A DNA stretch of 42,175 nt from Candidatus Micrarchaeota archaeon (GCA_964458205.1 CAYWFJ010000003.1:1-42175); one strand, 5' to 3'. Positions 3,122 to 22,430 are shown, numbered from the stretch's first letter. Notes: generated from the letters alone by a model not told the origin. Numbers and translations: made by a program.

Positions 3122-5344
3122 TCATTTCCCTGGGCAGTCGCTGTCGCACTTGTCAACAGCATCAGCATAGATGGAGATAACTTCGGCGCCATAGGCATAG
3201 CCCTGCCCTTCGCCCGGGTTCGGATTCGGGCGGTTGCGCACATAGCGGATATAGTTCTCCTCGCCGCTGCAGGCTGAGCTGTTGTCGCGCTGGTGTATGA
3301 ACCCCGATATTGAGGGCGGCTGCAGGCCGAAATATTTGTTTGATGCAAGGTAATAAGCTGCCCAGCCGCGGTCCTCGTCCTTTATTCCGCCATCGCAGAC
3401 CCCGGTGCCAATCTGCCCCCAGTTGCTGCCGATGAACTGTTCCGCGCTGCTTAGGGCGGTTGCGAATTTGCTGACCCCGCAGCAGATGCTCATCTCGGGG
3501 TTGAACGGGTTGTAGTTCTCGCCTCCGCACTCCTGGACCACCTGCGGCATTGCAATGCCGTCCTGCACGTAAAGATGGCCTGGAAGCTCAATGCACTGCA
3601 TGAGGCCAAACGCGCAGCGCTTCTGCCCGGAGGGGCATTCGGAATGGCAGTCTGCCGGCGGAATCCCGGCTGCATCGCAGATTTCTGACATGTAATAGTA
3701 GTTCCTTGTGTCTTCCGGCGTGGTCGGGCGCTGGTTGTTGCAGGGCCTTGCAAGCGGCACGCAGAACGATGGCAGCGAAGGGTCGAAATGGCTTTCATGC
3801 TCTATTATCGAGCGGACGAATGTCGAGCTGATGTCCGCGCTGTCTGCGATTTCCTCTATCATTGGGTAAAGCGGGCAGTGGTCGGAGCTGAAAACCTGCC
3901 CTGCGAAATTGTCATAAATGCCTGCGGATTCGGATGACAGCTTCGTTTCCGAAACGCATACCTCGCCGCAGTTGAGGTTTGCGATTTTCTCAAGGGGCAG
4001 AACCTCGCCTTGCGCCATCTCCACGCCGACTTGCGTGTTTATTTCGGTTGAAACCACGTTGTACATCTTGCTGTTGTAGAAAAGCTCGCATTTGTCCCCA
4101 TATGCATTGCGGGAGAACATGAGGGGAGTCCGGTAGCTTGATGTCCCGAAATACTGGCACATCTGGGACCATGTATTGAGCGCAGGATGCTTCTGCTCGC
4201 CCGAAGGGTAAAGCACCCCGAAATCGCAACCCTGTATTCCGTTGCACGGAAGGGGCCCGGTGCGGTCTATGAACTCATACATGCTCATGCCTATTACCCC
4301 GGATGCCGCAAGATCCGAAGAAAGTGCGAAGAGGTTCTGGTAGAAGTTGCGCACCTTTGCGGCGCTCCAGGTGCAGCTGCCGTCGCTGCTGTTCCCTTCG
4401 CTTGCCCCGGCATAAAGCCATATTGTCGGCTTGAAATAGGTGCGCAGTATGTCGCGCGAGAAGAGGTAGTTCTGCCCGATTGCGTCGTCAATGCTGCAGG
4501 TCGGGTAATCGTTTGCGCGGAAACCGAAGCCTATAAGGTCCACCTTGTCATAATAGGGGTTTGTGCTGTCTTGCGTCGGGTCTGCCGGAGGGGGCCCGAT
4601 GACTCTTTCAATCGCATGCATATCCCCGGATTTTACCGCAAGGACGGTAAGGCACTTGTCGCACGTGCCAAGGGCGTCAATCTGCGCATGTATTGCCGAG
4701 ACGTCATCGCTCCCGTTGAGGAGTATTTCGGTCGTGAGAATGGCGGGCCCTGCGTTCCCGTCTTCGAAGATTTGTGCCATCTCCTGGAAATAAGCCGCAT
4801 CCATGCGGGTCTTGTTTGAATAATAAATATACAGCGGCAGCGCGTCCCGGTCAAGCCAGCACACCGCACGCGCGATATTTGGCATGCGCGGCGCCCTTGA
4901 CGGGCTGCTCACCACCCATTTTGTCGCAAGCTGCAGCGAATAGTTGCAATAAAGGTTCGCCATGCCGGTTGAAGCGAAGGAAGGCCCGTTGCCCACCATG
5001 AAAACGCGGGGGAATGACTCGTTGTTGAGGGTCTTGTTGATGAATTCCTCCTCGTTGCACTTCTCGAATTCGCACCTTCCGTCAACCAGGGTGATGTCAT
5101 ACCATGGCAAAAGGAAATTTTTTAGCCTTGCAAAGAAATTCGTGTTGTTCTTGCACATCATGCAATAGCAGGGCTGTGGGTCGTCTATTTCCAGGCAGGA
5201 CGGGTCGGCAAGATTGTTGAAGCGGGAAAATGTCATGTCGGTGTTGCCCATCTGCTCGTTTGCGGGCACATTTAGGGCGCATCCTGCCAAAAGGAAGAAT
5301 GCGGATAGGGCGGTTGCCAGCATAAATCGCGTTTTCAGGCTCAT
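3122..5344 (-). CDS. Secreted Cys-rich lipoprotein, 740 aa, with C-terminal SLT (lytic transglycosylase-like) domain split by a Cys-rich insert
   Basis: N-terminus MSLKTRFMLATALSAFFLLAGC is a signal peptide plus lipobox. About 34 Cys by hand count. SLT motifs occur in order: SIIEHESHFDP ... AFGLMQ ... GWAAYYLASNKY. The N-terminal ~480 aa show an alternating beta/alpha pattern (PLYIYYS, PAILTTE, LTVLAVK, VDLIGFGF, PTIWLYAG, VIGMSMYE), possibly a TIM-barrel hydrolase. The start overlaps the stop of the upstream giant gene (ATGA). Confidence 0.8.
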   Translation of the reverse strand: MSLKTRFMLATALSAFFLLAGCALNVPANEQMGNTDMTFSRFNNLADPSCLEIDDPQPCYCMMCKNNTNFFARLKNFLLPWYDITLVDGRCEFEKCNEEEFINKTLNNESFPRVFMVGNGPSFASTGMANLYCNYSLQLATKWVVSSPSRAPRMPNIARAVCWLDRDALPLYIYYSNKTRMDAAYFQEMAQIFEDGNAGPAILTTEILLNGSDDVSAIHAQIDALGTCDKCLTVLAVKSGDMHAIERVIGPPPADPTQDSTNPYYDKVDLIGFGFRANDYPTCSIDDAIGQNYLFSRDILRTYFKPTIWLYAGASEGNSSDGSCTWSAAKVRNFYQNLFALSSDLAASGVIGMSMYEFIDRTGPLPCNGIQGCDFGVLYPSGEQKHPALNTWSQMCQYFGTSSYRTPLMFSRNAYGDKCELFYNSKMYNVVSTEINTQVGVEMAQGEVLPLEKIANLNCGEVCVSETKLSSESAGIYDNFAGQVFSSDHCPLYPMIEEIADSADISSTFVRSIIEHESHFDPSLPSFCVPLARPCNNQRPTTPEDTRNYYYMSEICDAAGIPPADCHSECPSGQKRCAFGLMQCIELPGHLYVQDGIAMPQVVQECGGENYNPFNPEMSICCGVSKFATALSSAEQFIGSNWGQIGTGVCDGGIKDEDRGWAAYYLASNKYFGLQPPSISGFIHQRDNSSACSGEENYIRYVRNRPNPNPGEGQGYAYGAEVISIYADAVDKCDSDCPGK

Positions 5345-8300
5345 GCCTCTCCCCTCTTCCCGTATGCCGCCCTGGCTTCGGCATCGATTGCCTGCCTCTT
5401 TGCCTTAAACCGCAATGGTGAATACATTGAAAAGCCGTTTGCAAGCTCGGTGCCCACCATGGCAAGATAGGCGGGCCTGCGCTGCCTGTGCTTGCTGTGG
5501 TCGACAAGCGCAGTGTCAATCGAATGCCCTGTGAACTGCTCGAATTTCGAGTCAAAACCGTCTATGTGGCCCCCGCCATAGACGTAATTGGCATCTATCC
5601 TGCCCCCTGCATAATGGTAATGCGGCGCGTGCTCGGAAGCTGAAGCGGTGGATTTGCTTTCCCTGAATTTCTTGAACAGCAGACCCCGGATTACGCTTGA
5701 AATCGGGCTTGCCAGCATGAGCGTTCTTGTGTTTGTGAACGAATAATCCATCATCTCGGCTTGGAGCTTCATGGTATTGAGAAGAAGCGAAGTGTCGTCC
5801 TTGTAGACTCTTCTGTAGGCATCGGAGTGCGTTGAGAACCTGTCAGAGGAGGATTTCCATCTGCCCTTCTCGTCATATTCATCGGAATAGTAATGCTTCA
5901 TCACGGAAAGGGGGCCGCCGCTTGCCCGGTCCACCTCGGATGCGATTTGCGTGAAAGGGCTGTATTTGCCAGTCAGGAGGGACACGTCTATCATGCCCGG
6001 AACCATTGGCTTCCAGTAATTTGAATTGTGGTACGCGGAATAAAGCTCCATGAAGCGGTTCCGCGAGCCGTCTTCCTGTATGTCCCTGCCGCTGTGCCCT
6101 TCCCTGACTGAAACTGGCCTGCTGTCATATATTTTCGAAATCGGCTTGAAGTATTTTTTCCAAAGCTCCTCTTTCCGCGCATGGTCGTCTGTTGTGCGCC
6201 ATTCTTCGTATACTTCCAGCATCTTTGGGTCGCTTTTAAGCATCGTGTCGAGCTTGCGCTCGGCTTGGAGATACCTGTCAAGAGGGCGGGTAAGCCCGCT
6301 AAGAAGCGCCGGGGTTGCGTAGTGCTCGCTGTCTGTGAAAATGCTGCGCACGCCCCTGCGCACAATTCCTTCCTTGGTGGGGTCGCTTGGGCCTGCGCGC
6401 ATATATGCCCCTATGGCCACGCTGAGGGTGGATGAATCAAGCATGTTCTGCAGACGTGCGTGTGTATAGTCTGTCGGGACGGTGATAAGCGCCTTGAAAA
6501 TCGCAAGCTTGTCCTGCGTCCCCCATTTTGACCCGTTAAGCGAGTCTGTTTCGAAGTATGCTGGGTAAAACGAGCCTTTCCTTGCTCCGAAGCTTATGAA
6601 TTCGTTCTGGAACTTGTGCACGGTGCTCGCAAGCGAAATCGGGAGATGCATCGCCCGCTCCCATCCGGAGTTTATGGCCCAAAAAGTCGGGCGCTCATAT
6701 ACGTTCTGCCCGGTCTGGTATCCGACCATCATGGTATTCTCATAGCCCCCGCCTATTGCAACGCGCGGGTCCCTCATCACGCTCGATTCTGCAACCTGGA
6801 AAAAATCGCTTGCAAGCCCCTGCCGATAGCCGCTGTCAAAAAGCCCCATTACTGAAACCAGGTTCCGCCTGGAGCCGTACGGGGAATCGTGGGTCCCCAC
6901 CCAGTCCCTTGCGATGTCGTTCAATGCCTTGAATTCGTGCTTTGCGTCCGCATATGCCGCCTTGTATTCCTGCCTTATTGCCTTGGTTTCATCCTTGCGC
7001 GCAAGGTAATCCTCCCTGGAAATGAGCCTGTCCTTGTAAAGCGAATTGAGGGCCTTGTCCATGAGCTTTGCGGAATAGTATTTCGATTCCTCCGCAGCAA
7101 TTGCTTCCAGCGTATTTGCGGCAATACCCCTCCTGTAATTCCAGCCGACTGCCCAGGAGAATAACCCTCCGGAAGACTGTATCTTGCCCATTCGGTCGGC
7201 TATCAGGTCCTTTTGCTCGTCGCTCCCCCCTATCTTTTTGTATTCATCGGTATTGTTCTTATCAAAGAAATGGGTTTTTGGGTCGAATGTGAAGCGCTTG
7301 CCCCCAGCCCTCGTCTCCCCTTCCAATTCGTTCTTGAACTCCCAAAGCACGAATCTCGCCTGGGTCTGTGCGGTGTACCAGTTGCGCATGTTCTGCTTCC
7401 TTGTTTCATAGCCCGCGGTGACGAATTCCGACAAAGCGCTGCCCAAGGAAAGCTGCGCACGGATGACAGAGTTCCTGGATTTTGTATCCCCTGCGCCAAA
7501 CACGCCCTGGCTTTCAGGCTTGCCGGAGTATTTGAGGTCTGAGACTGTGACGGCCTTTACCTTTGCATTAGGGTCATAGCCCCCGCCGATTTGGGTGCCT
7601 GTGAGGGACATGCCTGCAAGCACCCGGAGGTCCTTGTTTGATTCGGCAAATGCCATTATCCCTGCGGTTGACGCATCCTTGCCTGGATGCGCATAAATCC
7701 AGCTTGCATCTCCCCCGGGGGTCTTATGCTGGACAAGTATTGCTATGTTCATCAATCGGTTCCCGTAGCTTGAGGATTCGTACCTTGAGATAAGCGGCGC
7801 CAGGTCTACGACCTTTCCTTTCCGGTAGACGCCATCCTCTATGCCGCAGGCTTTCAGGACGTCCTGGTTGTGCTCCAGCATCACCATTCCCCCCCTCCTG
7901 TCGGACGACAGCATGAAGCCGACCTTGCGCCTGTAGTCTGAGAAAGTGTAGCCCCTCTTGATAAGCTCGCTGTAGGCATCCCCGTTGAAAACGGGCTTTC
8001 CTTCTGCATCGTATTTCAGCTTGCCTTTCATGTCCACTGTTGTAAACTTGGCATCGTAATACTGGCTGTCCTTGTTCACCAATTGGGAAAAGAACATGGC
8101 AAGCATGCTGCGGTCCTCCCTTGCCTTGTTCAGGTATTTTGACATGTCGCTGTATACGAAGTTCGCCCATGTGGAGCCAGATAGGCCATGCCATGCGGCT
8201 TGTGATGCCATATTGTCCCAGCGCCTCGCCCGCAGAAGCGCCTCGTCAACCGAACGGTCGTATTGTATGTTCTGGGTCCTGAATTCAGCCCTCTTTGCCG

Positions 8301-11289
8301 CAAGCTCCGCAACCTCCCCTTCCCCGGCTTTGCGCTCCAAGAACCGCAGGTTGCCTGCTGAAAATGGGTCTTTGAGTATGCTGAAAACTTCCCGATTGCC
8401 CCTTTGGGGCCTGAAAAGCTCGGAAACACCGATTGCCCGGGCTTCCCATTGTTTCGCAAAGCTTGTGCCTTCATTGAGAAGATTGACGAATGCCCTTGCG
8501 GACACGGCTTCGGCCGCATGCGCCGCAGCCTGGCGCCGCACATCTTCAGGAATCTTGTCAGGAGGCACGCCCTTGGCAAGCCTTGCCTGCGCGGATGAAA
8601 GCTCGCCATGGTAAAGCGCCTGAAGCTCGGAGCCAAGCTTCCCGTCAATAACCGCCTGCGTCAGCCTTTCGAGGAAATGCTTCCTGCCTGCGCTGTTCGG
8701 CCGCATCAGGATGTCGAAATCATCCATGTCCTTTATTGAATAGGGGTTTCCGCCCTCGGAAACAATCCCAAGATGCTTCAGGCGGTCGTTGAGGTAAAAC
8801 GACAGCGGCCCGCCCTCGCCAAAAATGCACGCCTTCATCAGCCGGCTTACCCTCTCCTGGAAGCTCTCGTCTGCTTTTGCCTTGGAGCCTGAATTGATGC
8901 TGTCTGCGATGCCTTTCAGCTGGGAAAGGGCGGCTTCGCCGTCTTTCAGGTATTTTTCCTTGAAGCGGGCTGCCTTTGAATCGAAATCGGCTGCGGAGAG
9001 CTTAGATATGCCTTCGCCGAAAATCACGTCTATCTGCTTGTCCACCTTCTTAGCCAGCTCCCTGAAGGAAGGCAGGTTTGCCCTGTTCTCGACCAAAAGG
9101 GCGAAGCGCTCGGCTTCTTTCATCTTTTCTATGTCCGCCGGGGAGAGTTTTTTTCCGTTGGCGACCAGTGCGCCGCTTTCTGCCAATGCCTTAAGCTCCG
9201 CCTCGGCTTTCTTGAGAAGCGGGAAATTCCCTTTTTCATACGAGAGGTGGGTGCGCATTGATTCGACATCCTCTCGAGTCAGTGCCTTGAATTCCCCGTT
9301 TTTGAAATATATCATGCAGTCGCGGGCAAGCCCGCCTATGATGCCCGCAAGGAGCCCTGTCTGCTCCTCGATTTTCTTCCGCTCAGGCCCCTGCTTTTGG
9401 AGAGAAGCAAGCGCAAGGAGCGCTTTCTCAGGAGTAAGTGTCCCTGAATTGAGCCGTTCAATCACTCCTGAAACATCCGCTTCGCGTTTTTCGATGCCCG
9501 AGAGGAATGAAGCGATATGCGAAAATGCCTTCTTGTCGAGATTTTCAAGCCTTTCAAAGGCCTTCTTGGCGCTGTTAGGGTCAGACGTATTGAGGCTGGC
9601 AAGGATGCTATTGAGGGTGTCTTTCTGGTCCGATGTGAGCGATGGGTTTTTCAGGGCGCTTTTCACCAGCTTGATAGCCTCTTCGCGGGTTTCGTGGCTG
9701 CCGCGGGTCGAAACCTGGCTGATGAGAAGGGCCAGAAGCTGGTTGTACATTATGGTTGTGCTTGCCGCAAGGCCGATACGGTATTCCTCCGCCCTGTCGA
9801 GTATTTCGTTTTTCTTCTTGTCCGCAAAATCCGATTTCTTCATGAATTCGTCGAATTTCCCCGGGCTTAGCTTCTGGAATAAGGCGCCAAGGGAATTCTT
9901 GATGCGTTTCCCTGCGTCCTCTTTGTCCTGCTTGGTGAATGCAAGGAACGCAAGCGCGCGCCCGGTCTCCGAGCCTAGCCTCTTGGCGCCTATCTTGCTC
10001 GCCCTGAACTGCATGTATACGTCCATCGCCTTGACTGGGAGATTGACCACGCCCTTAACTATCGGGATTTTCTGTATGATGCGCGCGCCCTTGCTCTCGT
10101 CGAATGCGACCACTTTCTTCCTGGCGCGGTCAAGGCGGTTGTTCAGCCATTTCTCATAGCCCTTGCTCCCCCCGCCCCTTGCAAGCTTCAGTGCGCTGAC
10201 CAGCTGGTCCCCGGCAGCCATGACATGCGTCAGGCCTTCGCCGCCCATTTTTTGTATTGAATCCCATTTTTTTGCAACCCTGCCCGATGCATCTTTGGGC
10301 CTGCCGCGCAGTATTTCCCTAAGGATCGCATTTACCCTTTCCGACCCCTCTTTGCTGAGCGGCGAGCCGCCGGAAGTCTCCTTGTAGTATTCACGCAGCG
10401 CCTCTTTGACCTGTTCGCGGGCTTGGCGCCTTGCTTCCTTCCTGTCCTTCCCGCTTTTGCCCCGCGTCCGCATGTCCGCGGCCTCCCTTGCTGCGGTGAA
10501 AAGGGACTTGGTCGCCTTCCTGTTCTGGATTTCGACCCGCTTGATCATCGAATTTATCATCATGGGCAATGTCGGGCCTTTCAGCCTGTATTGCCTGCTT
10601 TTTGGGAGGCGGGGGGTGGTAAGGTCGAAAAGCGAGAGCGGATCCCTGCCGGAATAATACATTGAGGCAAGGAGCAGCCCCACGACAAGCATTGCCGGAA
10701 AGCAGTATGCTGCGTTTGAGGAAAGCGCCCCGGATATTGCCGGGCCAAGCGCAGATAAGGCGGCATTGTTCTTCGGGCAGGCGGTTATTGCCTGGAAGGA
10801 GGGCAGTATCGAAACCTCCCCGCTGGTGTTGCCTTCATAGCGGACCTGGAGAAGCCCGCATGATTTTTGGGACTCGATGTCGGCAACCCCCCCTGATGCG
10901 TTGATGTGATAGGCAAAAGAGCAGTTCGCTTCGCCTTTTGCGTTGGCGATTGCCGGGTTGCAGATGACGTTGCCGGATGAATCCGAGAGATTGTGCCCGT
11001 CAAAAGAGAAAATGAGGCGGGCTCCGGCAACTGGGGCAAACCCGAAGCGCACATCGTCTATGGATTCGTAGGATGACGGATCCATCAGGACGCCCACGTC
11101 CTGCTCCAGGCTTGGGGAAACCCTTTGGTGGAATTCGCTTGCGTTTGCAAAGCTTATCTTCACATAGGCGGTTTGGCCGGATGAAGAGATTGTGATGAAC
11201 GTGCGGGCGCCCTCGTCAGATGCGGGCAGCGCGCAATTGGCAGCGGAAAATAAAAGCAGCAGTATGAACAGCGGTGTTGCCCTGCGCAT
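5341..11289 (-). CDS. Giant membrane-anchored protein (~1982 aa): signal peptide, ~170-aa ectodomain, one TM helix, ~1750-aa charged/coiled cytoplasmic region
   Basis: ORF 5341..11313. ATG 11289 gives MRRATPLFILLLLFSAANCALP, a typical signal peptide, and fits a leaderless transcript from the TATA at 11313-11323. The ectodomain has Cys and N-x-S/T sequons (NAS, NLS, NCS, NAS, NTS). TM helix is AAYCFPAMLVVGLLLASMYYS, followed by K/R-rich sequence (positive-inside). A long KE-rich helical region follows. No Walker A seen by eye. Confidence 0.8.
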   Translation of the reverse strand: MRRATPLFILLLLFSAANCALPASDEGARTFITISSSGQTAYVKISFANASEFHQRVSPSLEQDVGVLMDPSSYESIDDVRFGFAPVAGARLIFSFDGHNLSDSSGNVICNPAIANAKGEANCSFAYHINASGGVADIESQKSCGLLQVRYEGNTSGEVSILPSFQAITACPKNNAALSALGPAISGALSSNAAYCFPAMLVVGLLLASMYYSGRDPLSLFDLTTPRLPKSRQYRLKGPTLPMMINSMIKRVEIQNRKATKSLFTAAREAADMRTRGKSGKDRKEARRQAREQVKEALREYYKETSGGSPLSKEGSERVNAILREILRGRPKDASGRVAKKWDSIQKMGGEGLTHVMAAGDQLVSALKLARGGGSKGYEKWLNNRLDRARKKVVAFDESKGARIIQKIPIVKGVVNLPVKAMDVYMQFRASKIGAKRLGSETGRALAFLAFTKQDKEDAGKRIKNSLGALFQKLSPGKFDEFMKKSDFADKKKNEILDRAEEYRIGLAASTTIMYNQLLALLISQVSTRGSHETREEAIKLVKSALKNPSLTSDQKDTLNSILASLNTSDPNSAKKAFERLENLDKKAFSHIASFLSGIEKREADVSGVIERLNSGTLTPEKALLALASLQKQGPERKKIEEQTGLLAGIIGGLARDCMIYFKNGEFKALTREDVESMRTHLSYEKGNFPLLKKAEAELKALAESGALVANGKKLSPADIEKMKEAERFALLVENRANLPSFRELAKKVDKQIDVIFGEGISKLSAADFDSKAARFKEKYLKDGEAALSQLKGIADSINSGSKAKADESFQERVSRLMKACIFGEGGPLSFYLNDRLKHLGIVSEGGNPYSIKDMDDFDILMRPNSAGRKHFLERLTQAVIDGKLGSELQALYHGELSSAQARLAKGVPPDKIPEDVRRQAAAHAAEAVSARAFVNLLNEGTSFAKQWEARAIGVSELFRPQRGNREVFSILKDPFSAGNLRFLERKAGEGEVAELAAKRAEFRTQNIQYDRSVDEALLRARRWDNMASQAAWHGLSGSTWANFVYSDMSKYLNKAREDRSMLAMFFSQLVNKDSQYYDAKFTTVDMKGKLKYDAEGKPVFNGDAYSELIKRGYTFSDYRRKVGFMLSSDRRGGMVMLEHNQDVLKACGIEDGVYRKGKVVDLAPLISRYESSSYGNRLMNIAILVQHKTPGGDASWIYAHPGKDASTAGIMAFAESNKDLRVLAGMSLTGTQIGGGYDPNAKVKAVTVSDLKYSGKPESQGVFGAGDTKSRNSVIRAQLSLGSALSEFVTAGYETRKQNMRNWYTAQTQARFVLWEFKNELEGETRAGGKRFTFDPKTHFFDKNNTDEYKKIGGSDEQKDLIADRMGKIQSSGGLFSWAVGWNYRRGIAANTLEAIAAEESKYYSAKLMDKALNSLYKDRLISREDYLARKDETKAIRQEYKAAYADAKHEFKALNDIARDWVGTHDSPYGSRRNLVSVMGLFDSGYRQGLASDFFQVAESSVMRDPRVAIGGGYENTMMVGYQTGQNVYERPTFWAINSGWERAMHLPISLASTVHKFQNEFISFGARKGSFYPAYFETDSLNGSKWGTQDKLAIFKALITVPTDYTHARLQNMLDSSTLSVAIGAYMRAGPSDPTKEGIVRRGVRSIFTDSEHYATPALLSGLTRPLDRYLQAERKLDTMLKSDPKMLEVYEEWRTTDDHARKEELWKKYFKPISKIYDSRPVSVREGHSGRDIQEDGSRNRFMELYSAYHNSNYWKPMVPGMIDVSLLTGKYSPFTQIASEVDRASGGPLSVMKHYYSDEYDEKGRWKSSSDRFSTHSDAYRRVYKDDTSLLLNTMKLQAEMMDYSFTNTRTLMLASPISSVIRGLLFKKFRESKSTASASEHAPHYHYAGGRIDANYVYGGGHIDGFDSKFEQFTGHSIDTALVDHSKHRQRRPAYLAMVGTELANGFSMYSPLRFKAKRQAIDAEARAAYGKRGEA

Positions 11290-11312
11290 GGTTGCTTTTT
11301 GGAAATCCTGCA

Positions 11313-11323
11313 TTTATATATTA
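11313..11323. promoter_or_regulatory. Shared bidirectional TATA box for the two divergent operons
   Basis: TTTATATATTA sits in the 69-nt spacer between ATG 11289 (minus) and ATG 11359 (plus). It is about 25 nt from ATG 11289 and about 25 nt from the GGAGG SD at 11346-11350. Confidence 0.55.
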
Positions 11324-11358
11324 TGATGCTTTAATCATTGCAACTGGAGGGCTGGCGG

Positions 11359-12732
11359 ATGCTTGATTTCATTCTCATGACCCCTGAAATGCTCCTTTCA
11401 AGCTCGGGCGTCCTCATAGCCCTTGCCACTGCGATATCCATCATTGCCCTCTCGTTCATGGCGGGTGAATTCTTCTCAATGCCCACTCTCCGCGGATTTG
11501 CAAAGGCGGAACTCTATGAGCTTGGCGTAACCGCAGTCGTGATTGCCATATCCATAATGCTCATAACCCCGGGGGGGCCGTTCGACATGATTACGCGCGG
11601 CTTTCTGGATCCGGGAACCCCTGCGGATAGGGCATGCAAGGAATGGAAATCAATCCATGGGCAATACGACCCGGTTTCGGGGAATTACCCGGACGGCAAC
11701 CTCGCTTTTGCGCATGCGGACTATTTCATAGGGTGCAGGGTGGATTTCCTGACCCAGATGACATCGGCACTCACCTTGGGCATCCTGGACACGAACAGCG
11801 GGATAATGATAGCCAAGCTGACCACCGCCTACATGAACCTGATGCTGATGGAGTTTTTCATGGGGTTCCTCTCCACGGTCAATTTCCATCTGACGATTCA
11901 GACGCCCATATTGATAGGGATAGACATAGGGTTGCCGCCCCACGCCGGGCTCACCCCGCTGCTGGAATTCAACACCACCCTTACGGACATGGTGGGCAGC
12001 ACCATTGCCGCGATGACCGCAAAGAAGATGCTGCTGAATTTCATAGAGGAGAATGCAATCGGGGTTTTCCTGGTGCTTGGCATTTTCCTGCGCGCGCTCC
12101 CGTTCACCCGGAAAACCGGGTCCACGATAATAGCGATTGTGTTTGCCGCCTATTTCGTTTTTCCGACATCGGTTCTCCTGAACCAGCAGATATGGCGGGC
12201 GATAGAAAACCCCCCTGGCCCGCCAGGCTGCCTAGAGGTCGGGACTGCGTGCACGGCGGATTCGGAATGCTGCTCAGGCAATTGCGCAATGGGGGCGGGC
12301 AGATGCGCTGCGATGCTGAGCGATTTTGACCATGTGAAATCGTTCATAAACACGTGCTACGGAAAAAGCGAGGCTGAAGTCCGCGATTCGCTTGACAGCC
12401 AGGCGCAGCACCAGCAGGCCCAGCTGGAGCAGTATTTTGACGACCAGGGAGAGGAGGCAGTATCCACAAGAACCACCAGCCGCCTCAAAAGCTCGCTTGG
12501 CACTGCGGGAAACGTCATAGTCGGCCCGATGCTCAGCATGAACATCCCCATCGGGAGCGGCCCGCTGACTTTCGGGTTTGTCGAAAAGGCCATGAATGAC
12601 ATGGGCAGGCTCATGCTCATAATATTGATATTCACAGTGATAGAAATACTGGTCACCATAACCCTCATGAAGGACTTTGCCATCATGATAGGCGGTGAAC
12701 CGCGGGTTCTTGGCATAAGCAAGCTGGTGTGA
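11359..12732 (+). CDS. Polytopic membrane protein, paralogue P1 of 6 (LRxxPxTRxxG family, unnamed), with knottin-like 6-Cys loop
   Basis: ORF 11338(TTG)..12732. ATG 11359 is preceded by GGAGG. Multiple hydrophobic helices. Core motif FLRALPFTRKTGSTIIAIVFAAYFVFP (from 12088). Loop CLEVGTACTADSECCSGNCAMGAGRC (12229-12306). C-terminal TM plus tail IGGEPRVLGISKLV. Confidence 0.8.
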   Translation: MLDFILMTPEMLLSSSGVLIALATAISIIALSFMAGEFFSMPTLRGFAKAELYELGVTAVVIAISIMLITPGGPFDMITRGFLDPGTPADRACKEWKSIHGQYDPVSGNYPDGNLAFAHADYFIGCRVDFLTQMTSALTLGILDTNSGIMIAKLTTAYMNLMLMEFFMGFLSTVNFHLTIQTPILIGIDIGLPPHAGLTPLLEFNTTLTDMVGSTIAAMTAKKMLLNFIEENAIGVFLVLGIFLRALPFTRKTGSTIIAIVFAAYFVFPTSVLLNQQIWRAIENPPGPPGCLEVGTACTADSECCSGNCAMGAGRCAAMLSDFDHVKSFINTCYGKSEAEVRDSLDSQAQHQQAQLEQYFDDQGEEAVSTRTTSRLKSSLGTAGNVIVGPMLSMNIPIGSGPLTFGFVEKAMNDMGRLMLIILIFTVIEILVTITLMKDFAIMIGGEPRVLGISKLV

Positions 12733-12734
12733 CC

Positions 12735-13658
12735 ATGGCGTTTGGGGGATTCATCCTGGAAATTTTTGCTGCGGGGGGCATCGGAGATGTCGCGCTGTCC
12801 CTTTTCGCGGTTTCCATAGCAGTAATGGCTTCGATAATCGCGCTTGCCTACATGGCATCGCAATTCTTCAGGAAGCCCGAATACGAGGGTTTTGTAACAC
12901 TTGAGATATACCAGCTCATCGTATCCGTCCTGCTGTTCGTCTCAATAGGGGGGGTCGCGGTTTTTGCAAATTCCCTGATGTATGCGTTTTCTGGCTCTGA
13001 CCCGATAGACACGGGCAGAGCATATCTCTCATATGTAAGCGAGCAGATTGCGCTTCCGGTTATGGTCGGGTTTGAGACATTGAAGCTCACAATGCAATTC
13101 ATAGGTTCGATAAGCATGAGATGGGGCGCCAGCGTGTGGGGGGTGGTGATGGTCCCTTTCGGGGCATGCCAGGTGCTTGAAAAGGTGGCGGACGTTATCC
13201 TGATGATATCGGTGCCATTCATATCAAGCCTCCAGGTGCAGATGGTAATCCTCGAAATGATTGAGGGTTTGGCGCTCTCATTCGTCCTCCCTGCTGGCGC
13301 GCTTCTTAGGATATTCCCCCCGACAAGGGACGCGGGCACCTTCCTGATGTGCTCCGCGCTTGCAGCGCTCACGGTCTACCCGTTCACATATGTGATGCAT
13401 GACAAGATAGTCAGGGTGATGGTGTCTGGTGAAAGCGAGAATCCGACAGCAAACGACATGCTTCAGAGCCAAAACCCCGGATTTGCAAGGGTAATGTCCG
13501 CAAGCTGGGCGATTGACCCGGAAAAAATGCTGTTCAGGCCCCTGCGCCTCCTAAGCTACCTTGTCCTTCAGGGGGCTTTCCTGCCTGCGCTGAGCATGGT
13601 CATAACCATTTCGTTCATAAAAGGAACCACCAAATTCGTGAGCCAGAAATTCGGGTGA
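12735..13658 (+). CDS. Polytopic membrane protein, paralogue P2 of 6
   Basis: The start (GTG 12729 or ATG 12735) overlaps or abuts the P1 stop. Core motif LLRIFPPTRDAGTFLMCSALAALTVYPFTYV (13305 onward). The N-terminal TM region aligns by eye with P1 and P6 (..IIALAYMASQFFRKPEYEGF..). Confidence 0.78.
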   Translation: MAFGGFILEIFAAGGIGDVALSLFAVSIAVMASIIALAYMASQFFRKPEYEGFVTLEIYQLIVSVLLFVSIGGVAVFANSLMYAFSGSDPIDTGRAYLSYVSEQIALPVMVGFETLKLTMQFIGSISMRWGASVWGVVMVPFGACQVLEKVADVILMISVPFISSLQVQMVILEMIEGLALSFVLPAGALLRIFPPTRDAGTFLMCSALAALTVYPFTYVMHDKIVRVMVSGESENPTANDMLQSQNPGFARVMSASWAIDPEKMLFRPLRLLSYLVLQGAFLPALSMVITISFIKGTTKFVSQKFG

Positions 13659-13662
13659 GCCT

Positions 13663-13779
13663 TTGGGTAAACCGGACGCATCCTCAAAAACGGCGCTTCT
13701 TGCCCTCTTTCTTGCATTAGCCATGCTGGCTTGCGGATGCACCGGCTCTGATGGGGGGCAAAGCGGTATAGTCCTGTAG
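13663..13779 (+). other. 38-codon lipoprotein-signal-like ORF in the same frame as P3, ended by TAG 13777-13779 (N-terminal extension of P3, or a micro-ORF)
   Basis: TTG 13663 is preceded by GGGTGA (13653-13658). The product is MGKPDASSKTALLALFLALAMLACGCTGSDGGQSGIVL*. The P3 reading frame continues directly after the TAG. This piece resembles the N-terminal extension of P4 (MMKTPTARQAAFAIALVAIALAMFASMPCG). Confidence 0.5.
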
Positions 13780-13806
13780 ATTTTTGGTTGGGAAAACCTC
13801 GTTGCA

Positions 13807-14973
13807 GTGGCTCTTGCCGCAACAGCAAGCCTTTTGGGCCTTGCATATATCGCCGCATCTTTTGTGAATGATGACAAGCTTAAGGCATGGGTCAAAAAAG
13901 AGGCAGGGCAGCTGGTTTTCTCAATTATGATAATAATATGCGCAATTGCGATCGTTGACAGCATGGATTTCTGGCTTAAAACATTCAGCCTTGCAGGCTC
14001 TCCGGCCTGGCAGGACTATGTTGGAAACCACATATGCTGCGACCCTGCCGTTGTGCCCCAGTGCCAGGCGGGGCTATGGAAACGCCCGTGCCATGTGGAG
14101 CTCGCGATGGACCACCTGCAGTTTGTCTATGAGACCCTGCGGAAGAATGTCATGACTTATCTTTGGAATTACTCGGCCATTGCAACGCTTGCCAATCTCC
14201 ACACCAGCATAAACATCATGAATAGGCCCGACTTCGGGAGCCTGAGCCTGAGCCCGTTAACCTACCTGTCCGCAGGAGTTGACTATTTCACCATACTCAT
14301 TGGGCTTGCAACCAAAGCCATGATGATGACCCGCACGCAGCAGGCAGCCCTGGATTATCTGCATTATCCAGTATTCGGGGCTTTCATGTCCATGGGGCTC
14401 GTGCTGCGCATACTCCCATTCACAAGAAAATTGGGGGGCATGCTAATAGCCATATCGCTTTCGTTGTATGTGGTCCTGCCGATGTTTTACGTCCTAAACA
14501 GCGCAATATTATGGGGCTTCATTGCGGCGCCTGCAGGGGGAACGCCCTCAACAGTGGGGGCGTCATACGACACCGGCGCATATACGCCCGGGTATGGCGC
14601 AGGGGAAGCTGAAAACTATGATGCGGTTGACCCTGAGAATGTCCTTGAAGGGGGCTATGTTGCGAATATAGACGTATGCAACAGCACAGGGGCCGATGCC
14701 GAACAGGCAAGGGCTGAAAGGCAGCAGGATGAGGGATTTATCCAAAGCAACTGGAAAATGATGCGCGGGACAAAGTGGCATGCCGGCCTGCAGACAATGC
14801 TTACCGGCCCCGGGCTCTCGTATGATGGCCCGCTCGGGGTCCTTGCGATGATAATGGTATTCTCGACCGTGCTCCCGTTCCTTGGACTGATGACTTCGCT
14901 TGCCGCATTCAAGGTCCTTTCCCCGCTGCTCGGGGGGGATGTCGAGTTAGGGCTGCTCTCGAGGCTGATATGA
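13807..14973 (+). CDS. Polytopic membrane protein, paralogue P3 of 6 (possibly disrupted or read-through; see 13663..13779)
   Basis: ORF from GTG 13807, which has only a weak SD. Core motif VLRILPFTRKLGGMLIAISLSLYVVLPMFYV. Cys- and sequon-containing loops (HICCDPAVVPQCQ, CNSTG). Tail LGGDVELGLLSRLI. The stop overlaps the P4 start (ATGATG). Confidence 0.7.
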   Translation: MALAATASLLGLAYIAASFVNDDKLKAWVKKEAGQLVFSIMIIICAIAIVDSMDFWLKTFSLAGSPAWQDYVGNHICCDPAVVPQCQAGLWKRPCHVELAMDHLQFVYETLRKNVMTYLWNYSAIATLANLHTSINIMNRPDFGSLSLSPLTYLSAGVDYFTILIGLATKAMMMTRTQQAALDYLHYPVFGAFMSMGLVLRILPFTRKLGGMLIAISLSLYVVLPMFYVLNSAILWGFIAAPAGGTPSTVGASYDTGAYTPGYGAGEAENYDAVDPENVLEGGYVANIDVCNSTGADAEQARAERQQDEGFIQSNWKMMRGTKWHAGLQTMLTGPGLSYDGPLGVLAMIMVFSTVLPFLGLMTSLAAFKVLSPLLGGDVELGLLSRLI

Positions 14974-16292
14974 TGAAAACTCCCACTGCAAGGCAGGCTG
15001 CTTTCGCAATTGCGCTGGTCGCCATCGCGCTGGCGATGTTCGCAAGCATGCCTTGCGGAAATTATTTCGGGTTTGACGTTTTCGGCACCAACCCGCCTAA
15101 CGTGGTCACCTGCGACCAGCCGGCAAACGGACTTTTCTGGCTTGAGCTCACCATAATCGCGCTTGCGCTCTCGGTGGCGCTCGTCTCTGCAGCCTGGATA
15201 CTCAACGGCGTTTTTGGCGGCCCGAAATACAACGAATTCCTGAAAGAGCGCCTATGGAGCATGCTTGAGACCGCGGTGATAATGGGCATTTTCATAGCCA
15301 TGCTGGTTTCGCTCCAGCAATATGGGAACGACAATCTCGACACGGCGAGGGCATACACAAAAATAATACGGAATAGCGCGGTGGAGGATTTTGGGAAAAC
15401 GATAGCGGGAACTGCCCTGTTTTCATTCGTATCGAATGCCAACCCGAAAATACACCTTTTCAAGGGCCATTTCGGGTCCTATATCGATTTCCAGCTGGCA
15501 CCCATGTTCAAGCCGATATTCGACATGATGGGGCTGATAATACAGCTCCAGACCACGGTTGTGCTTCAGTGGTTTGCCCATGACTACCTGCTCTGTTTTG
15601 CAAAAAACTACCTGCTGACCCTCCTTTTGCCAGTCGGGCTTTTCCTTCGCGGGATGGGCATCAAAACCGCAGGCAACGCCATGATGGGGGTTGCGATTGC
15701 CCTTTATTTTGTCTATCCGTTCATGATTGTCCAAATAGGGGAGATGGTCACAAAACACTATGAGAATGAGATTTCGGCGCTCACCATTGCAGAGGGCAAC
15801 ATACACCTGAGCCTTTGCTTCAGCAGCAAGCCCATATGCTGCATGGGCGGGACCCCTGACCCGGTCAACGATACCCTGGTCATACCGAACGGGAATGGGT
15901 TCATAAGCGTCAAAAAAGTCCTTACCAACCCCCTCCTTGGTTGCAGCTACTCGACAACCAATGTAAGGATATGGGAAAGCGCGGGAGGGGTGGTGGCAAG
16001 CAGCGCAGCCTTCATGCTGATGAAAGCCATGATGTCCGGCTCGGGCACGTCATCGAGCAGCACGGGCTTGAGCACCGCTTCAGGGTTCATGAATATCCTG
16101 ATGCTGCTGGCCCTTTTCCCGCCCATGGTGATGCTGGTGCTTAGCTTCATATACGGGCTTGCTTATTTCTTCTTCATCGTAAGCATGGTGCTGCCGATAT
16201 TCGCCATATTCATAACTCTCACGCTCGCAAAGGAGATTACCAAGGCGCTTGGGACGGAAATAGACCTTTCAGCGCTTGAAAAGCTGATATGA
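14970..16292 (+). CDS. Polytopic membrane protein, paralogue P4 of 6 (with extra N-terminal signal/anchor)
   Basis: ATGA overlap with P3. Divergent core FLRGMGIKTAGNAMMGVAIALYFVYPFMIV. Cys loop SLCFSSKPICCMGG..VNDT. S/T-rich stretch SGSGTSSSSTGLSTASG. Tail LGTEIDLSALEKLI. Confidence 0.78.
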   Translation: MMKTPTARQAAFAIALVAIALAMFASMPCGNYFGFDVFGTNPPNVVTCDQPANGLFWLELTIIALALSVALVSAAWILNGVFGGPKYNEFLKERLWSMLETAVIMGIFIAMLVSLQQYGNDNLDTARAYTKIIRNSAVEDFGKTIAGTALFSFVSNANPKIHLFKGHFGSYIDFQLAPMFKPIFDMMGLIIQLQTTVVLQWFAHDYLLCFAKNYLLTLLLPVGLFLRGMGIKTAGNAMMGVAIALYFVYPFMIVQIGEMVTKHYENEISALTIAEGNIHLSLCFSSKPICCMGGTPDPVNDTLVIPNGNGFISVKKVLTNPLLGCSYSTTNVRIWESAGGVVASSAAFMLMKAMMSGSGTSSSSTGLSTASGFMNILMLLALFPPMVMLVLSFIYGLAYFFFIVSMVLPIFAIFITLTLAKEITKALGTEIDLSALEKLI

Positions 16293-16307
16293 GGACAGGG
16301 TGCCATA

Positions 16308-17366
16308 ATGGGATTGAACATTGCCGAAAACATCTGCGCCCCCATCCTGTCCGGGGCCCCGTCGGATTTTCCTGGAAGTTTCGGGATTCTTGGCGCTGAC
16401 TGGCTGCAGCTGACTTTCCTTGCCCTCCTTGCATCGCTCCTAGCTCTTTCTATAATATACATGCTTTCATTCTTCCTTAAGCAGAACGCAGCAGCAGCGT
16501 GGGCGAAATTCGAGCTCTTCCAGCTTTTTGCAACAGCCATGCTGGTGGTCATGACCTCTTCCGTGCTGATAGTCGGGATGTGCTCGTTTGACATGCGCAT
16601 TCTTGACCCGGACAGATATGCGGATCCGCAAAACCCGAATCGGCCCATGAACATGCTGGATATTGTGGACAGGTATTTTGGCGAGCTTGAGAAGGCGGGC
16701 GGGATGCTTTTTGCCGCCTTCCTGTTCATCATCAATATCCTGACCAACCTATTCAAGGCGATGTTCCTAAGCTCGCCACTGGGAGTGGGGGGCAATGAAA
16801 GCCCTCTTGAATCGCTTATGCAGCTCAACAACATGTTCTTCATCCTGATAAGCGGATTCGTCATCTCGTTCCTCATGCTTGGCGTGCAGACCAGGATGGT
16901 GGAGTACATCAGCATAGCTGCGCTCTATTACCTGTTTCCCTTCGGGGTTTTTTTCAGGGCGTTTGAGCCGACCCGCGCTTTTGGCGGAACCCTGATAGGC
17001 CTCTCAATCTCCCTTTTCCTGTTCTACCCCGCCCTCCTGGTTTTCAACGACTATGTTGTTTACGGGCCGGTTTCCGAAATCAACCAGGAGCTGGAAGATA
17101 GCATAGATAGGGGCGACACGCAGGTTTCTGGGCAGCAAGGCGGGATGCCCGACAGCCAGGTAATAGTGAATGGAATAGAAAGCGGCGACCTGGCATCCGG
17201 GATAGGCGGTTCCGTCCTTGTGGTTTTCAAGCCGCTCATGCTGTATTTCGTGGCAGCGGTCGTCCTGCCCATAATCAATTTCATAATACTGGTGGAAGTT
17301 GCAAGGGGGCTCACGCGCCTCCTGGGAGAAGAGGTGGACATAACCAACCTCACGAGGCTGATATGA
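16308..17366 (+). CDS. Polytopic membrane protein, paralogue P5 of 6
   Basis: ATG 16308 is preceded by GGGTG. Core FFRAFEPTRAFGGTLIGLSISLFLFYPALLV. Tail LGEEVDITNLTRLI. The stop overlaps the P6 start. Confidence 0.78.
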   Translation: MGLNIAENICAPILSGAPSDFPGSFGILGADWLQLTFLALLASLLALSIIYMLSFFLKQNAAAAWAKFELFQLFATAMLVVMTSSVLIVGMCSFDMRILDPDRYADPQNPNRPMNMLDIVDRYFGELEKAGGMLFAAFLFIINILTNLFKAMFLSSPLGVGGNESPLESLMQLNNMFFILISGFVISFLMLGVQTRMVEYISIAALYYLFPFGVFFRAFEPTRAFGGTLIGLSISLFLFYPALLVFNDYVVYGPVSEINQELEDSIDRGDTQVSGQQGGMPDSQVIVNGIESGDLASGIGGSVLVVFKPLMLYFVAAVVLPIINFIILVEVARGLTRLLGEEVDITNLTRLI

Positions 17367-18361
17367 TGGCATTTGATTTGACTTCGTCCGGATGGATAGG
17401 CATTTCGGTGCTCGTGGCCCTGGTTTCCCTCTTCATCACCGTGCTTTTGCATATGCTCGCCCAGGCGTTCAGCCTCCAGAGCCTTGGCATGTGGGCAAAA
17501 TCCGAATATGCACAGGTGGCGGTCAGCTTCCTGATAATCTTCTTCGCGGCAGTGATGCAAAGCGCAGGTGCGGAAGTGGTCAGCCAGGTCACAGCCGAAG
17601 TTGCGGCGGCATCGGGGAACATGATGCTCACCTCCAGCATGTCGGCGAATATGGACCCGGTGGAAATAGCCAAGGCGTACATAAACAAAATCACCGGTTG
17701 CCAAATAACGCTTTACAAAATAGCATACTGGCTCAACTTCATCATGGAGCCGCTGAGCAAAATCAGCCTGGAGGCCATGGGTTTTGAAGGGATTACTGGG
17801 GGCGCCCTCTCAGGATATGTCTCTTTTTTCCACTACGTAATGAATAACCTTACATATGTGATCCTCTTCAACTATGTCCAATACAGCGTGCTTCTGCTCT
17901 CTAAATACTCCATGCTTTACCCGGTACTCCCAATCGGTCTTGTTCTTCGCGCGTTCGCGCCGACCAGGGGGGTTGGAGGGCTGATGGTTGCGTTCGCGCT
18001 TGGCTTCGCATTCGTGTTCCCATTCACGTACGTGCTGGTGGTTGCAATAACCCCGAACACCACATACACCATGTGCAATGAGATAACCCTAACCGCTGGC
18101 GATTTGCCACAAAAAGACGAGCAGCCTTGCTACAACAGCAAGGCGGGAACAAGGGAACAGTCTTTCAGGCTAAAAAGCAACATGCAGAAAATATCCGGGA
18201 TAGTCGGATTCATGCAGAATGCGATAGGGATAATCTTTCTGCAGGCGGTAATCTACCCATTGGTCTCGTTGATTATGACTTTCACGTTCATCAGGCAGAC
18301 CAGCTCGCTGTTCGGAGCCGACCTTGCAGAGATAGGGCGCGGGCTCATCAAGATAATATAG
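17363..18361 (+). CDS. Polytopic membrane protein, paralogue P6 of 6
   Basis: ATGA overlap with P5. Core VLRAFAPTRGVGGLMVAFALGFAFVFPFTYV. Loop TPNTTYTMCNEITL..QPCYNS. Tail FGADLAEIGRGLIKII. Confidence 0.78.
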   Translation: MMAFDLTSSGWIGISVLVALVSLFITVLLHMLAQAFSLQSLGMWAKSEYAQVAVSFLIIFFAAVMQSAGAEVVSQVTAEVAAASGNMMLTSSMSANMDPVEIAKAYINKITGCQITLYKIAYWLNFIMEPLSKISLEAMGFEGITGGALSGYVSFFHYVMNNLTYVILFNYVQYSVLLLSKYSMLYPVLPIGLVLRAFAPTRGVGGLMVAFALGFAFVFPFTYVLVVAITPNTTYTMCNEITLTAGDLPQKDEQPCYNSKAGTREQSFRLKSNMQKISGIVGFMQNAIGIIFLQAVIYPLVSLIMTFTFIRQTSSLFGADLAEIGRGLIKII

Positions 18362-18736: not shown

Positions 18737-18865
18737 GCTTTTGGATATGCATGGCTCGCATTTATAAAAAATGCGCCCAGGCAAGTCCCATCCGCTTTAA
18801 AAACTATCATTCAAATGTTTAGCGGCTCCTGTGTGGGGAGACTGAACTGAAGCCCTGGGTTTTTC

Positions 18866-20020: not shown

Positions 20021-20027
20021 TGTTCTT

Positions 20028-21728: not shown

Positions 21729-21825
21729 ATGGAAATGGAAAAGGGGATTCGCATCCCTTCCGGCTTATCCTTGATTTGCCCGCTTAATCCTTGCTTTTCT
21801 TTTTTCGCATCAGCTTGCCTTTTTT

Positions 21826-22398: not shown

Positions 22399-22416
22399 GG
22401 CTTTCGCTTTTTGTGC

Positions 22417-22430
22417 CTATATTTTTAAAG
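22417..22430. promoter_or_regulatory. TATA box upstream of the tRNA 5' fragment / LAGLIDADG ORF (possibly bidirectional with 21826..22398)
   Basis: CTATATTTTTAAAG. Its 3' edge is about 26 nt upstream of G22456, the first base of the tRNA-like 5' segment. Confidence 0.5.

Follow-up and report, generated by a model that had tools for sequence, protein, structure and literature searches.

A conserved array of six paralogous membrane proteins in Micrarchaeota as candidate subunits of one cell-envelope complex

In the window, the whole stretch of Candidatus Micrarchaeota DNA that was analysed (42,175 nucleotides), six co-oriented genes at 11359-18361 encode homologous five-TM proteins, M1 to M6, of a membrane-protein family for which no known relatives were detected. 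With moderate confidence, M1-M6 are interpreted as anciently diverged, distinct subunits of one obligate hetero-oligomeric Micrarchaeota membrane complex, probably a cell-surface or host-contact apparatus. The six most likely build one multi-part envelope machine because the same six are found in the same order in every related genome examined. All six ORFs (6/6) are present on the + strand, preceded by a short divergent intergenic region:

11290..11358, no strand: short divergent intergenic region with an A/T-rich TTTATATATTA element and GGAGG (direct sequence reading)
11359..12732, + strand: M1, subunit 1, 457 aa, 5 TM, AF2 pLDDT 81.9
12729..13658, + strand: M2, subunit 2, smallest of the six at 309 aa; 4-nt overlap of its start with the M1 stop
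13663..14973, + strand: M3, subunit 3; intact ORF from GTG 13807 to 14973, 388 aa
14970..16292, + strand: M4, subunit 4, 440 aa; signal-like segment at the N-terminus
16308..17366, + strand: M5, subunit 5, 352 aa
17363..18361, + strand: M6, subunit 6, 332 aa; 4-nt overlap of its start with the M5 stop

The ATG of M1 at 11359 lies 8 nt downstream of GGAGG and agrees with orthologue N-termini, and the intergenic region may function as a promoter. The six core strings quoted in an earlier note on this DNA (LRALPFTRKTGS and its counterparts) were all found verbatim in the ORFs. No seventh family member was detected in the window, and tRNA and Rfam scans of it were empty. M3 is interrupted: a signal peptide of lipoprotein type (LACGC), encoded at 13663-13776, is severed from the protein by an in-frame TAG at 13777-13779 in place of a conserved Trp. 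If the TAG is real, full-length lipid-anchored M3 would be dispensable in this genome.

Homology of the six, proposed in the earlier note from motifs aligned by eye, is supported well above chance by statistical tests. Pairwise BLASTP and phmmer matches among the proteins are collinear, and hhalign comparisons between orthologue groups give probabilities of 97.5-99.7%. Profiles built from orthologues of other genomes, without window sequences, retrieve the remaining five proteins of the array (E 1e-6 to 1e-24 for most pairs, Z=1e6; three M4-involving pairs are weaker or missing) and match none of the other window ORFs. Topology prediction also agrees with the architecture described in that note: a TM1-TM2 hairpin, ecto-loop 1, a TM3-turn-TM4 hairpin, a variable ecto-loop 2 (55-143 aa in the six), TM5 and a conserved tail. 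All six are 5-TM, N-out/C-in proteins with the cytoplasmic turn G..LR..P.TR..G, the motif being deviant in M4 (LRGMGIKTAGN). The N-out topology is indicated by cleavable signal peptides on M3, M4 and relatives. Placement of the large loops outside the cell is backed by the M3 and M4 signal peptides, by the positive-inside TRK turn and by the enrichment in Cys, with 26 in 1393 aa of ecto-regions vs 3 in 892 aa elsewhere. The supposed richness of these loops in N-x-S/T sequons did not hold up, as the 7 found in 1393 aa are about the chance expectation, itself a back-of-envelope estimate not derived from window composition.

The six proteins have their cytoplasm-facing elements in common: P..K.FAK.E..EL in the TM1-2 loop, LR..P.TR..G in the TM3-4 turn and GGE....GLsKL[IV] at the extreme C-terminus. 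The extracellular regions are subunit-specific, with predicted disulfide stabilisation in M1, M3 and M4. Identity between paralogues is highest in the cytoplasmic turn (44%), compared with 10-11% in the ecto-loops. The AlphaFold model of M1 is confident (pLDDT 82) and shows 5 TM helices and an ectodomain formed from TM-helix extensions. Ecto-loop 2 of M1 contains a knottin-like CX6CX5CCX3CX6C module (about 12229-12309), the Cys of which are invariant in Micrarchaeia orthologues of M1; Pfam matches to conotoxins and spider toxins are weak (37/69 family members, all under cut-offs).

Complete related loci, known from about 15 genomes, hold exactly six tandem members each, in fixed order and size order, and the best matches fall at the same array position for 85 of the 85 genes. 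The six are therefore not recent or diversifying duplicates, and recent tandem duplication was rejected; judged from sequence, they are ancient, strictly positional orthologues. Loci carrying the array are spread across the Micrarchaeia; Anstonellaceae are represented, as is a divergent clade with Bilamarchaeaceae as named members. The genes of the array lie close together and often share 4 nt. Apart from one 99% copy, orthologues are 36-53% identical to the window copy, the rate of evolution being similar for all six. The similar evolutionary rates, the tight spacing and the turn being the most conserved element between paralogues were counted in favour of a complex, as were the fixed number and order, the loop lengths and Cys numbers kept within each paralogue, the synteny with the giant and SLT-lipoprotein genes described below, the housekeeping setting and the absence from viral, plasmid and phage collections.

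It could alternatively be hypothesized that the six are independent surface receptors or transporters, in which tandem duplication and variable loops diversify an interface, for example for host or virus recognition. Such a role would fit ecto-loops that are the most divergent regions between paralogues and Cys-rich modules that, like the knottin-like motif of M1, are typical of binding modules. It would also fit loop 2 being the fastest-evolving region between orthologues (25-36% identity, the core of TM3-4 and TM5-tail having 63-78%; regional identity was used in place of dN/dS, synonymous sites being saturated at 36-53% orthologue identity). However, copy number and order do not vary, positional orthology is complete, neither recent duplicates nor gene-conversion-like similarity were seen among the six, loop length and Cys framework are kept per paralogue across genomes, and the genes are tightly packed. 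Independent receptors are thus improbable. The loops differ between subunits, yet are not hypervariable between genomes, and the earlier view of them as a diversifying surface-exposed interface is not supported, in view of the positional orthology, a copy number that is always six and the conserved loop lengths and Cys counts.

Among all named sources, the family is confined to Micrarchaeota (phylum Microcaldota, DPANN); public data contain at least 3117 of its clusters when grouped at 50% identity. Around the cluster lie genes with housekeeping functions, among them those for L15e, RNase P subunits, SecDF and fibrillarin, and a viral contig scan and tblastn against plasmids and phages found no relatives. 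A mobile-element origin was rejected; the cluster belongs to the core genes, and its inheritance is vertical. Two large genes on the opposite strand and two Sec genes downstream accompany the array:

5341..11313, - strand: giant partner protein, 1990 aa; gene caller start at 11289
3122..5344, - strand: SLT-like lipoprotein, 740 aa, lipobox LAGC, 34 Cys
about 3245-3862, - strand: C-terminal lytic-transglycosylase (SLT/GH23)-like domain of the 740-aa lipoprotein, with E517-S518 and GLMQ motifs
18866-20020, + strand: SecF, downstream of the array
19971-21728, + strand: SecD, downstream of the array

The giant consists of a signal peptide, a Cys- and sequon-bearing ectodomain of ~175 aa, one TM, the invariant juxtamembrane motif MYYSGRDPLSLFDLTTPRLP and ~1770 aa that are probably cytoplasmic; the TM and juxtamembrane segment are its most conserved part. 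Searches against Pfam, NCBIfam, PHROGs and PDB sequences gave no usable match for it, and its role is a guess because the AF2 model of the conserved C-terminal 991 aa failed (pLDDT 49, unusable). For the 740-aa lipoprotein, the Pfam SLT model matches 6/8 orthologues (best E 2.2e-5), the window copy scoring E 0.059, under the gathering score; a profile of the protein found nothing usable among PDB sequences. Residues E517-S518, G580 and Q583 are invariant in its orthologues, and the E-S motif aligns with that of Agrobacterium tumefaciens VirB1. For Pacearchaeota and Woesearchaeota, Castelle et al. 2021 (PMC8204110) proposed a part in cell-cell interaction for large extracellular SLT-domain proteins, which reach 3000 aa. 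These are likewise secreted DPANN proteins with a murein-lytic-transglycosylase-like domain (PMC8204110), but they belong to other phyla and reach greater lengths, whereas the lipoprotein described here is Cys-rich, 740 aa long and keeps a fixed place in synteny with the giant and the six-gene array.

In those Micrarchaeia loci that were examined, the giant gene and M1 are arranged head-to-head, and the array is head-to-head with the giant and SLT-lipoprotein genes in most lineages sampled. Synteny of giant, SLT-lipoprotein, array and SecFD is found in Micrarchaeia loci, including an Anstonellaceae locus of 25% identity. In the very divergent locus L019, a giant with the same N-terminal module adjoins M1 and an SLT-like ORF is also present. 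The Bilamarchaeaceae-type clade (L002/L003, L020, L021) departs from this arrangement: neither the giant nor the SLT protein neighbours the array, and SecDF does not follow downstream. A 1363-aa protein near the L002 array was rejected as a giant homologue, having no signal peptide, TM or profile match. The absence of an ATPase or other energy source within the cluster, the non-adjacent partners in this clade and the in-frame stop of M3 were counted against a complex.

The position of SecF and SecD, conserved same-strand neighbours directly downstream in Micrarchaeia loci that extend far enough, would fit a reading of the array as an envelope-biogenesis module, which would anchor or assemble an S-layer or surface glycoproteins, or aid Sec-dependent export with SecDF, and would not be specific to host contact. 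The two genes may be co-expressed with the array, which need not make them part of the complex. The gap between array and SecDF is a 504-nt spacer in the window vs 56 nt in L001, and the adjacency is lost in the Bilamarchaeaceae-like loci. Signal peptides or lipoboxes on subunits and partners, the core, vertically inherited character of the cluster and an S-layer in Micrarchaeota, as described in a preprint, are consistent with envelope biogenesis. On the other side, such a module would not be expected to include a glycan-cleaving SLT enzyme or a cytoplasmic protein of 2000 aa, and nothing resembling known S-layer anchoring or glycosylation proteins was found. Altogether, this role is considered rather unlikely.

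The description of the six as an unrecognised polytopic membrane-protein family stands, with no match in the libraries searched (Pfam, NCBIfam, PHROGs, PDB sequences, Foldseek PDB/BFVD). A Pfam scan of 69 family members at E<=10 recognised no family, NCBIfam and PHROGs scans of the six proteins gave no match, and the family profile found noise only among PDB sequences. No significant match emerged when the M1 model was compared with PDB and BFVD by Foldseek (best PDB TM-score 0.17, none at E<=0.001). Among the papers found on Micrarchaeota and DPANN cryo-ET, S-layer, protein families and Microcaldus, none describes the cluster. Exclusion of ABC permease, T2SS-F/PilC and VirB6 identities for the core motif, made in the earlier note, was borne out, none of these models being matched. 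ABC permeases (EAA loop, BPD_transp_1) were rejected in view of no Pfam or NCBIfam match and no adjacent ABC ATPase gene, T2SS-F/PilC/FlaJ (PF00482) with 0/69 members matching and no adjacent secretion ATPase or pilins, and TrbL/VirB6 (PF04610) with 0/69 members at E<=10 and an hhalign probability of 0.07% between the family profile and A. tumefaciens VirB6.

VirB6 of type IV secretion nevertheless resembles the six in its 5-TM, N-out/C-in topology and its large external loop, and occurs as tandem paralogues (RvhB6) in Rickettsiales. Together with the lytic-transglycosylase-like protein encoded alongside, reminiscent of VirB1 and sharing its E-S motif, this raises the possibility of a highly diverged type IV secretion or conjugation-like conduit, with the six as VirB6-like channel subunits and the SLT lipoprotein as the VirB1 equivalent. 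Such an origin is highly improbable given that the six proteins show no sequence or profile similarity to VirB6/TrbL, and no fold similarity to solved VirB6 by Foldseek of the M1 model, in which nothing in the PDB (a copy assumed to include T4SS entries) exceeded a TM-score of 0.2. Moreover, neither the 42-kb window nor the surroundings (21 kb each) of about 20 related loci showed a VirB4, VirD4 or VirB11 ATPase or a pilin, and other VirB components were likewise missing nearby. The Micrarchaeota array always has exactly six distinct subunits in a vertically inherited, archaeal chromosomal housekeeping context, and the family is absent from plasmids.

The gross topology of the M1 model also resembles that of TTYH/prominin proteins, which are N-out with 5 TM and two large disulfide-bonded external loops from TM-helix extensions. 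A membrane-shaping or lipid-handling role of this kind, in which an extracellular helical bundle bends the membrane or captures host lipids, would suit lipid-auxotrophic DPANN cells. TTYH1-3 were indeed the top Foldseek PDB matches, but at E 0.4-2, probability <=0.11, TM-score 0.13-0.17 and rmsd above 20 Å, which is no real fold match, and no sequence signal was found in PDB sequences or Pfam. TTYH and prominin are eukaryotic homo-oligomers, not sets of six paralogues, and have neither the LR..P.TR..G turn nor the C-terminal GGE...KLI tail, so that such a role is very improbable. A further likeness, taken as a lead only, is to the FliP/FliQ/FliR export gate of type III secretion, a pseudo-hexameric assembly of helical-hairpin proteins: both combine tight hairpins predicted as TM with a possible pseudo-six-fold arrangement of non-identical chains. 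Unlike the gate proteins, the Micrarchaeota six have large ectodomains and no other T3SS genes are present; no FliP/Q/R (SctR/S/T) chain appeared among the Foldseek PDB matches, nor was there a Pfam match.

In the six-subunit complex favoured here, the simplest stoichiometry would be one copy each of M1-M6, every subunit contributing five TM helices as two tight helical hairpins and a last helix. Because the cytoplasmic elements are shared and the extracellular regions subunit-specific, the resulting membrane platform would be uniform on its inner side and asymmetric on its outer side. The platform probably works with the two proteins encoded head-to-head with it. The giant, single-pass and probably mostly cytoplasmic, could serve as scaffold or tether, and the secreted SLT-like lipoprotein is predicted to cleave glycans outside the cell. 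Most likely, the complex would serve these host-dependent archaea as an apparatus of the cell envelope or of cell contact. A more specific proposal, which we regard as doubtful, is that M1-M6 form a one-to-one, pseudo-symmetric hetero-hexameric ring of new fold at the core of the Micrarchaeota host-contact apparatus (for example the intercellular tubes or contact sites seen by cryo-ET), with the giant holding it from inside and the SLT-like lipoprotein opening the partner envelope. If so, it would be a conduit between cells that is specific to this lineage and has no relation to known secretion systems.

To our knowledge, almost none of the molecular parts by which DPANN archaea attach to or feed on other cells are known, and the cluster supplies named candidates for this contact: a set of eight genes, all or some of which are conserved throughout the class, including that for a giant membrane-anchored protein. 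A fixed set of six paralogous subunits is, as far as we know, unusual for a prokaryotic membrane complex, homo-oligomers being the rule. The candidates also include a predicted extracellular glycan-cleaving enzyme, in an organism not known to have murein of its own. The family appears to be new, without detectable relatives and with a fold that is confidently predicted and unmatched, and it merits a family definition of its own. Co-cultures of cultured Micrarchaeota with published cryo-ET exist for Ca. Micrarchaeum harzensis and Microcaldus ARM-1; if these strains carry the cluster, its predicted part in DPANN cell contact would be directly testable.

Six open reading frames (ORFs), all co-oriented, occupy 11359-18361 of the window, as the earlier note had described; they are referred to here as M1-M6:

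M1: 11359-12732, forward strand, ORF
M2: 12729-13658, forward strand, ORF
M3: 13807-14973, forward strand, ORF
M4: 14970-16292, forward strand, ORF
M5: 16308-17366, forward strand, ORF
M6: 17363-18361, forward strand, ORF

The proposed M1 start, ATG 11359, is correct, being preceded by GGAGG and with an equivalent Met opening the orthologues, and each of the six core strings quoted in that note was found verbatim. Pairwise identity between the proteins is only 19-24%, yet they align collinearly. Homology was assessed with profiles that drew only on orthologues from other genomes; E values refer to a nominal database size of 1e6 sequences. Such profiles retrieve the other five window paralogues, mostly at E 1e-6 to 1e-24, and no further ORF in the window. 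Against M4, the M3 profile scored weakly (E 2.4), the M6 profile was weaker than most pairs (E 2.7e-4), and the M2 profile found no match. Given these matches and hhalign probabilities of 97.5-99.7% among the six orthologue groups, the suggested paralogy is statistically sound. M3 contains an in-frame TAG (13777-13779, within 13663-13809), located exactly at the Trp of all orthologues (VWVWGWE), which splits a lipoprotein signal peptide (…LAMLACGC…) from the remaining protein. Possible explanations are mutation of TGG to TAG, an error in sequencing or assembly, and a restart at GTG 13807.

The architecture was drawn from hydropathy, alignments and a confident AlphaFold2 model of M1 (pLDDT 81.9, pTM 0.78), all of which agree. 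A tight TM1-TM2 helical hairpin with the connecting loop P..K.FAK.E..EL is followed by large region 1 (a beta-hairpin and helices), a 49-residue helix whose terminal part is TM3, a one-residue turn inside LR..P.TR..G, and TM4, terminating in (Y/F)xx(Y/F)P. Variable region 2 (55-143 aa) then leads into a long helix terminating in TM5 and a tail, GGE....GLsKL[IV], conserved up to the very C-terminus. Lipoprotein signal peptides on M3 orthologues, N-terminal signal peptides on M4 and several relatives, the positive charge of the TRK turn, and the concentration of Cys in the two large regions (26/1393 aa vs 3/892 aa elsewhere) argue for an N-out/C-in topology in which the two large regions are external. 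The loops had also been described as sequon-rich, but their 7 sequons in 1393 aa are about the chance level by a rough estimate. M1 region 2 carries a CX6CX5CCX3CX6C module (~12229-12309, residues 291-317) whose cysteines are invariant among Micrarchaeia orthologues; it is knottin-like, and 37 of 69 family members show weak conotoxin/spider-toxin Pfam matches. Few modules of this cystine-knot-like type are known from archaea.

The family had been put forward as unrecognized, and database searches agree. No Pfam model matches it (69 aligned members, E<=10), NCBIfam and PHROGs do not recognize it, PDB sequences gave no match, and the M1 model had no significant Foldseek match in the PDB or BFVD. 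The top PDB structures, TTYH1-3, reached E 0.4-2 and TM-scores of 0.13-0.17, which speaks against prominin/TTYH-like membrane shaping or lipid capture, a role considered very improbable. Nor does the family match ABC-permease or T2SS-F profiles, in line with the earlier reading of the core motif. VirB6 was tested directly because it, too, has five TMs with the N-terminus outside, is accompanied by an SLT protein and, in Rickettsiales, occurs as tandem paralogues. However, the hhalign probability was 0.07% and a T4SS ATPase is absent nearby, so that membership in VirB6 is rejected as well and a degenerate T4SS is very improbable. The family is large: a full HMMER scan of 1.84 billion representatives returned 3117 clusters (E<=1e-3), 2445 of them with E<=1e-10. 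Taxon-named members are nearly all from Micrarchaeota, Micrarchaeia, Anstonellaceae or Bilamarchaeaceae, the exceptions in naming being two members labeled just 'uncultured archaeon' and one contig assigned to Patescibacteria. The latter (locus L014, JBAZMO010000078.1; P0034) is a 3.4-kb contig with an M1 orthologue deposited as 'Patescibacteria group bacterium', and is probably mis-binned, since the other taxonomically named members all come from Micrarchaeota. No relatives were found in viral contigs, plasmids or phages, and the literature searched holds no description of the cluster. M1-M6 thus represent a new protein family and gene cluster, with the M1 fold compared with PDB and BFVD.

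Neighborhoods of relatives from ~15 further genomes were compared. Every sufficiently long locus has exactly six family members in tandem, in a constant size order (~465/305/430/445/355/330 aa), with spacing mostly <=20 nt and numerous 4-nt overlaps. For 85/85 genes, the top hit among the window paralogues is the one in the corresponding position, and the runner-up scores far lower. This positional orthology persists even in an Anstonellaceae locus with identities of 25-33%, and in a divergent clade represented, as far as its members are named, by Bilamarchaeaceae. It follows that the copies arose before the class Micrarchaeia radiated and that the set has stayed intact since. Between orthologues, identity is 63-75% in TM3-TM4, 63-78% in TM5-tail, 41-56% in TM1-TM2, 40-50% in region 1 and 25-36% in region 2. 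Across paralogues, the cytoplasmic turn is best conserved (44%) and the ecto-regions least (10-11%), while loop length and number of cysteines are paralogue-specific and maintained across orthologues. Diversification of a surface interface, as proposed earlier, is unsupported by such a fixed set, and independent diversifying receptors are improbable: the pattern is characteristic of a single complex of distinct subunits whose inner face is shared and whose outer face is asymmetric, not of a diversifying repertoire.

The window comes from an archaeal chromosome, as its genes for ribosomal protein L15e, an RNase P subunit, SecF/SecD, fibrillarin, diphthamide synthase and PPDK show. The neighbors of the cluster that are of concern here are:

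3122-5344, reverse strand, 740-aa SLT-like lipoprotein
5341-11313, reverse strand, 1990-aa giant protein
18866-21728, forward strand, SecF and SecD

The genes for the giant and the SLT-like lipoprotein are arranged head-to-head with M1 in the examined Micrarchaeia loci. The giant comprises a signal peptide, ~175 aa with 6 Cys and 5 sequons, a single TM, and ~1770 aa that are probably cytoplasmic, as they have only 3 Cys. Its best-conserved stretch, the TM and juxtamembrane MYYSGRDPLSLFDLTTPRLP (residues ~200-245; window 10579-11313, reverse strand), is recognizable even in the very divergent homologue of locus L019, an indication of a specific contact within or at the membrane. The giant has no relatives in Pfam and PDB, and only 17 homologues were found, all from uncultured or Micrarchaeota sources. 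The lipoprotein has a LAGC lipobox and 34 Cys; its C-terminal part (~3245-3862) matches the Pfam SLT lytic-transglycosylase domain in 6/8 orthologues (best E 2e-5), with an invariant E-S catalytic motif that aligns with its A. tumefaciens VirB1 counterpart and a GLMQ-like motif also kept. The N-terminal ~480 aa have no known relatives. This archaeon is not known to have murein. In L019, a 1152-aa protein with the giant's N-terminal module adjoins M1, and an SLT-like ORF is nearby. Large SLT-domain proteins have been considered candidate cell-interaction enzymes in other DPANN phyla (Castelle et al. 2021, PMC8204110). SecF and SecD follow M6 in Micrarchaeia loci of sufficient extent, as an envelope-biogenesis or Sec-associated platform would have it; this role is nevertheless rather unlikely. 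Bilamarchaeaceae-like loci have the six genes without giant, SLT-like lipoprotein or SecF/SecD neighbors. The six-gene set is thus the universal unit, and its partnership with other genes is inferred from synteny in most lineages, not all.

Further features were observed around and beyond SecF/SecD:

18380-18784, reverse strand, possible small ORF (2 TMs, basic tail) with a TTTTTATAAA element upstream, in the M6-SecF spacer
21341-22453, reverse strand, 370-aa ORF, C-terminal third overlapping SecD on the opposite strand
22489-23475, forward strand, 328-aa ORF, helix-turn-helix at the N-terminus, weak match to LAGLIDADG_3
25391-30943, reverse strand, second orphan giant ORF (1850 aa), between SecD and fibrillarin

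The M6-SecF spacer is 504 nt here vs ~50-100 nt in most relatives. The 370-aa ORF matches other loci only as antisense of SecD; at least part of it, in the form listed, is a shadow ORF. The 328-aa ORF may be a mobile remnant or a regulator derived from a homing endonuclease. The 1850-aa ORF has no TM segment, no Pfam match and no BLAST match among the fetched loci; because SecD is directly followed by DUF2085 and fibrillarin in a relative's locus (L001), it and the HTH/LAGLIDADG and asparagine-synthase-like genes look like an insertion specific to this lineage.

Altogether, M1-M6 are homologous, anciently diverged 5-TM proteins, always found together and in fixed order, with conserved cytoplasmic motifs and subunit-specific, partly disulfide-rich ectodomains. 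Judging from these features, they probably assemble stoichiometrically into one membrane complex. More tentatively, this complex might dock the giant through its TM and juxtamembrane stretch and work with the extracellular SLT-like enzyme, and would then form a cell-envelope or host-contact apparatus.
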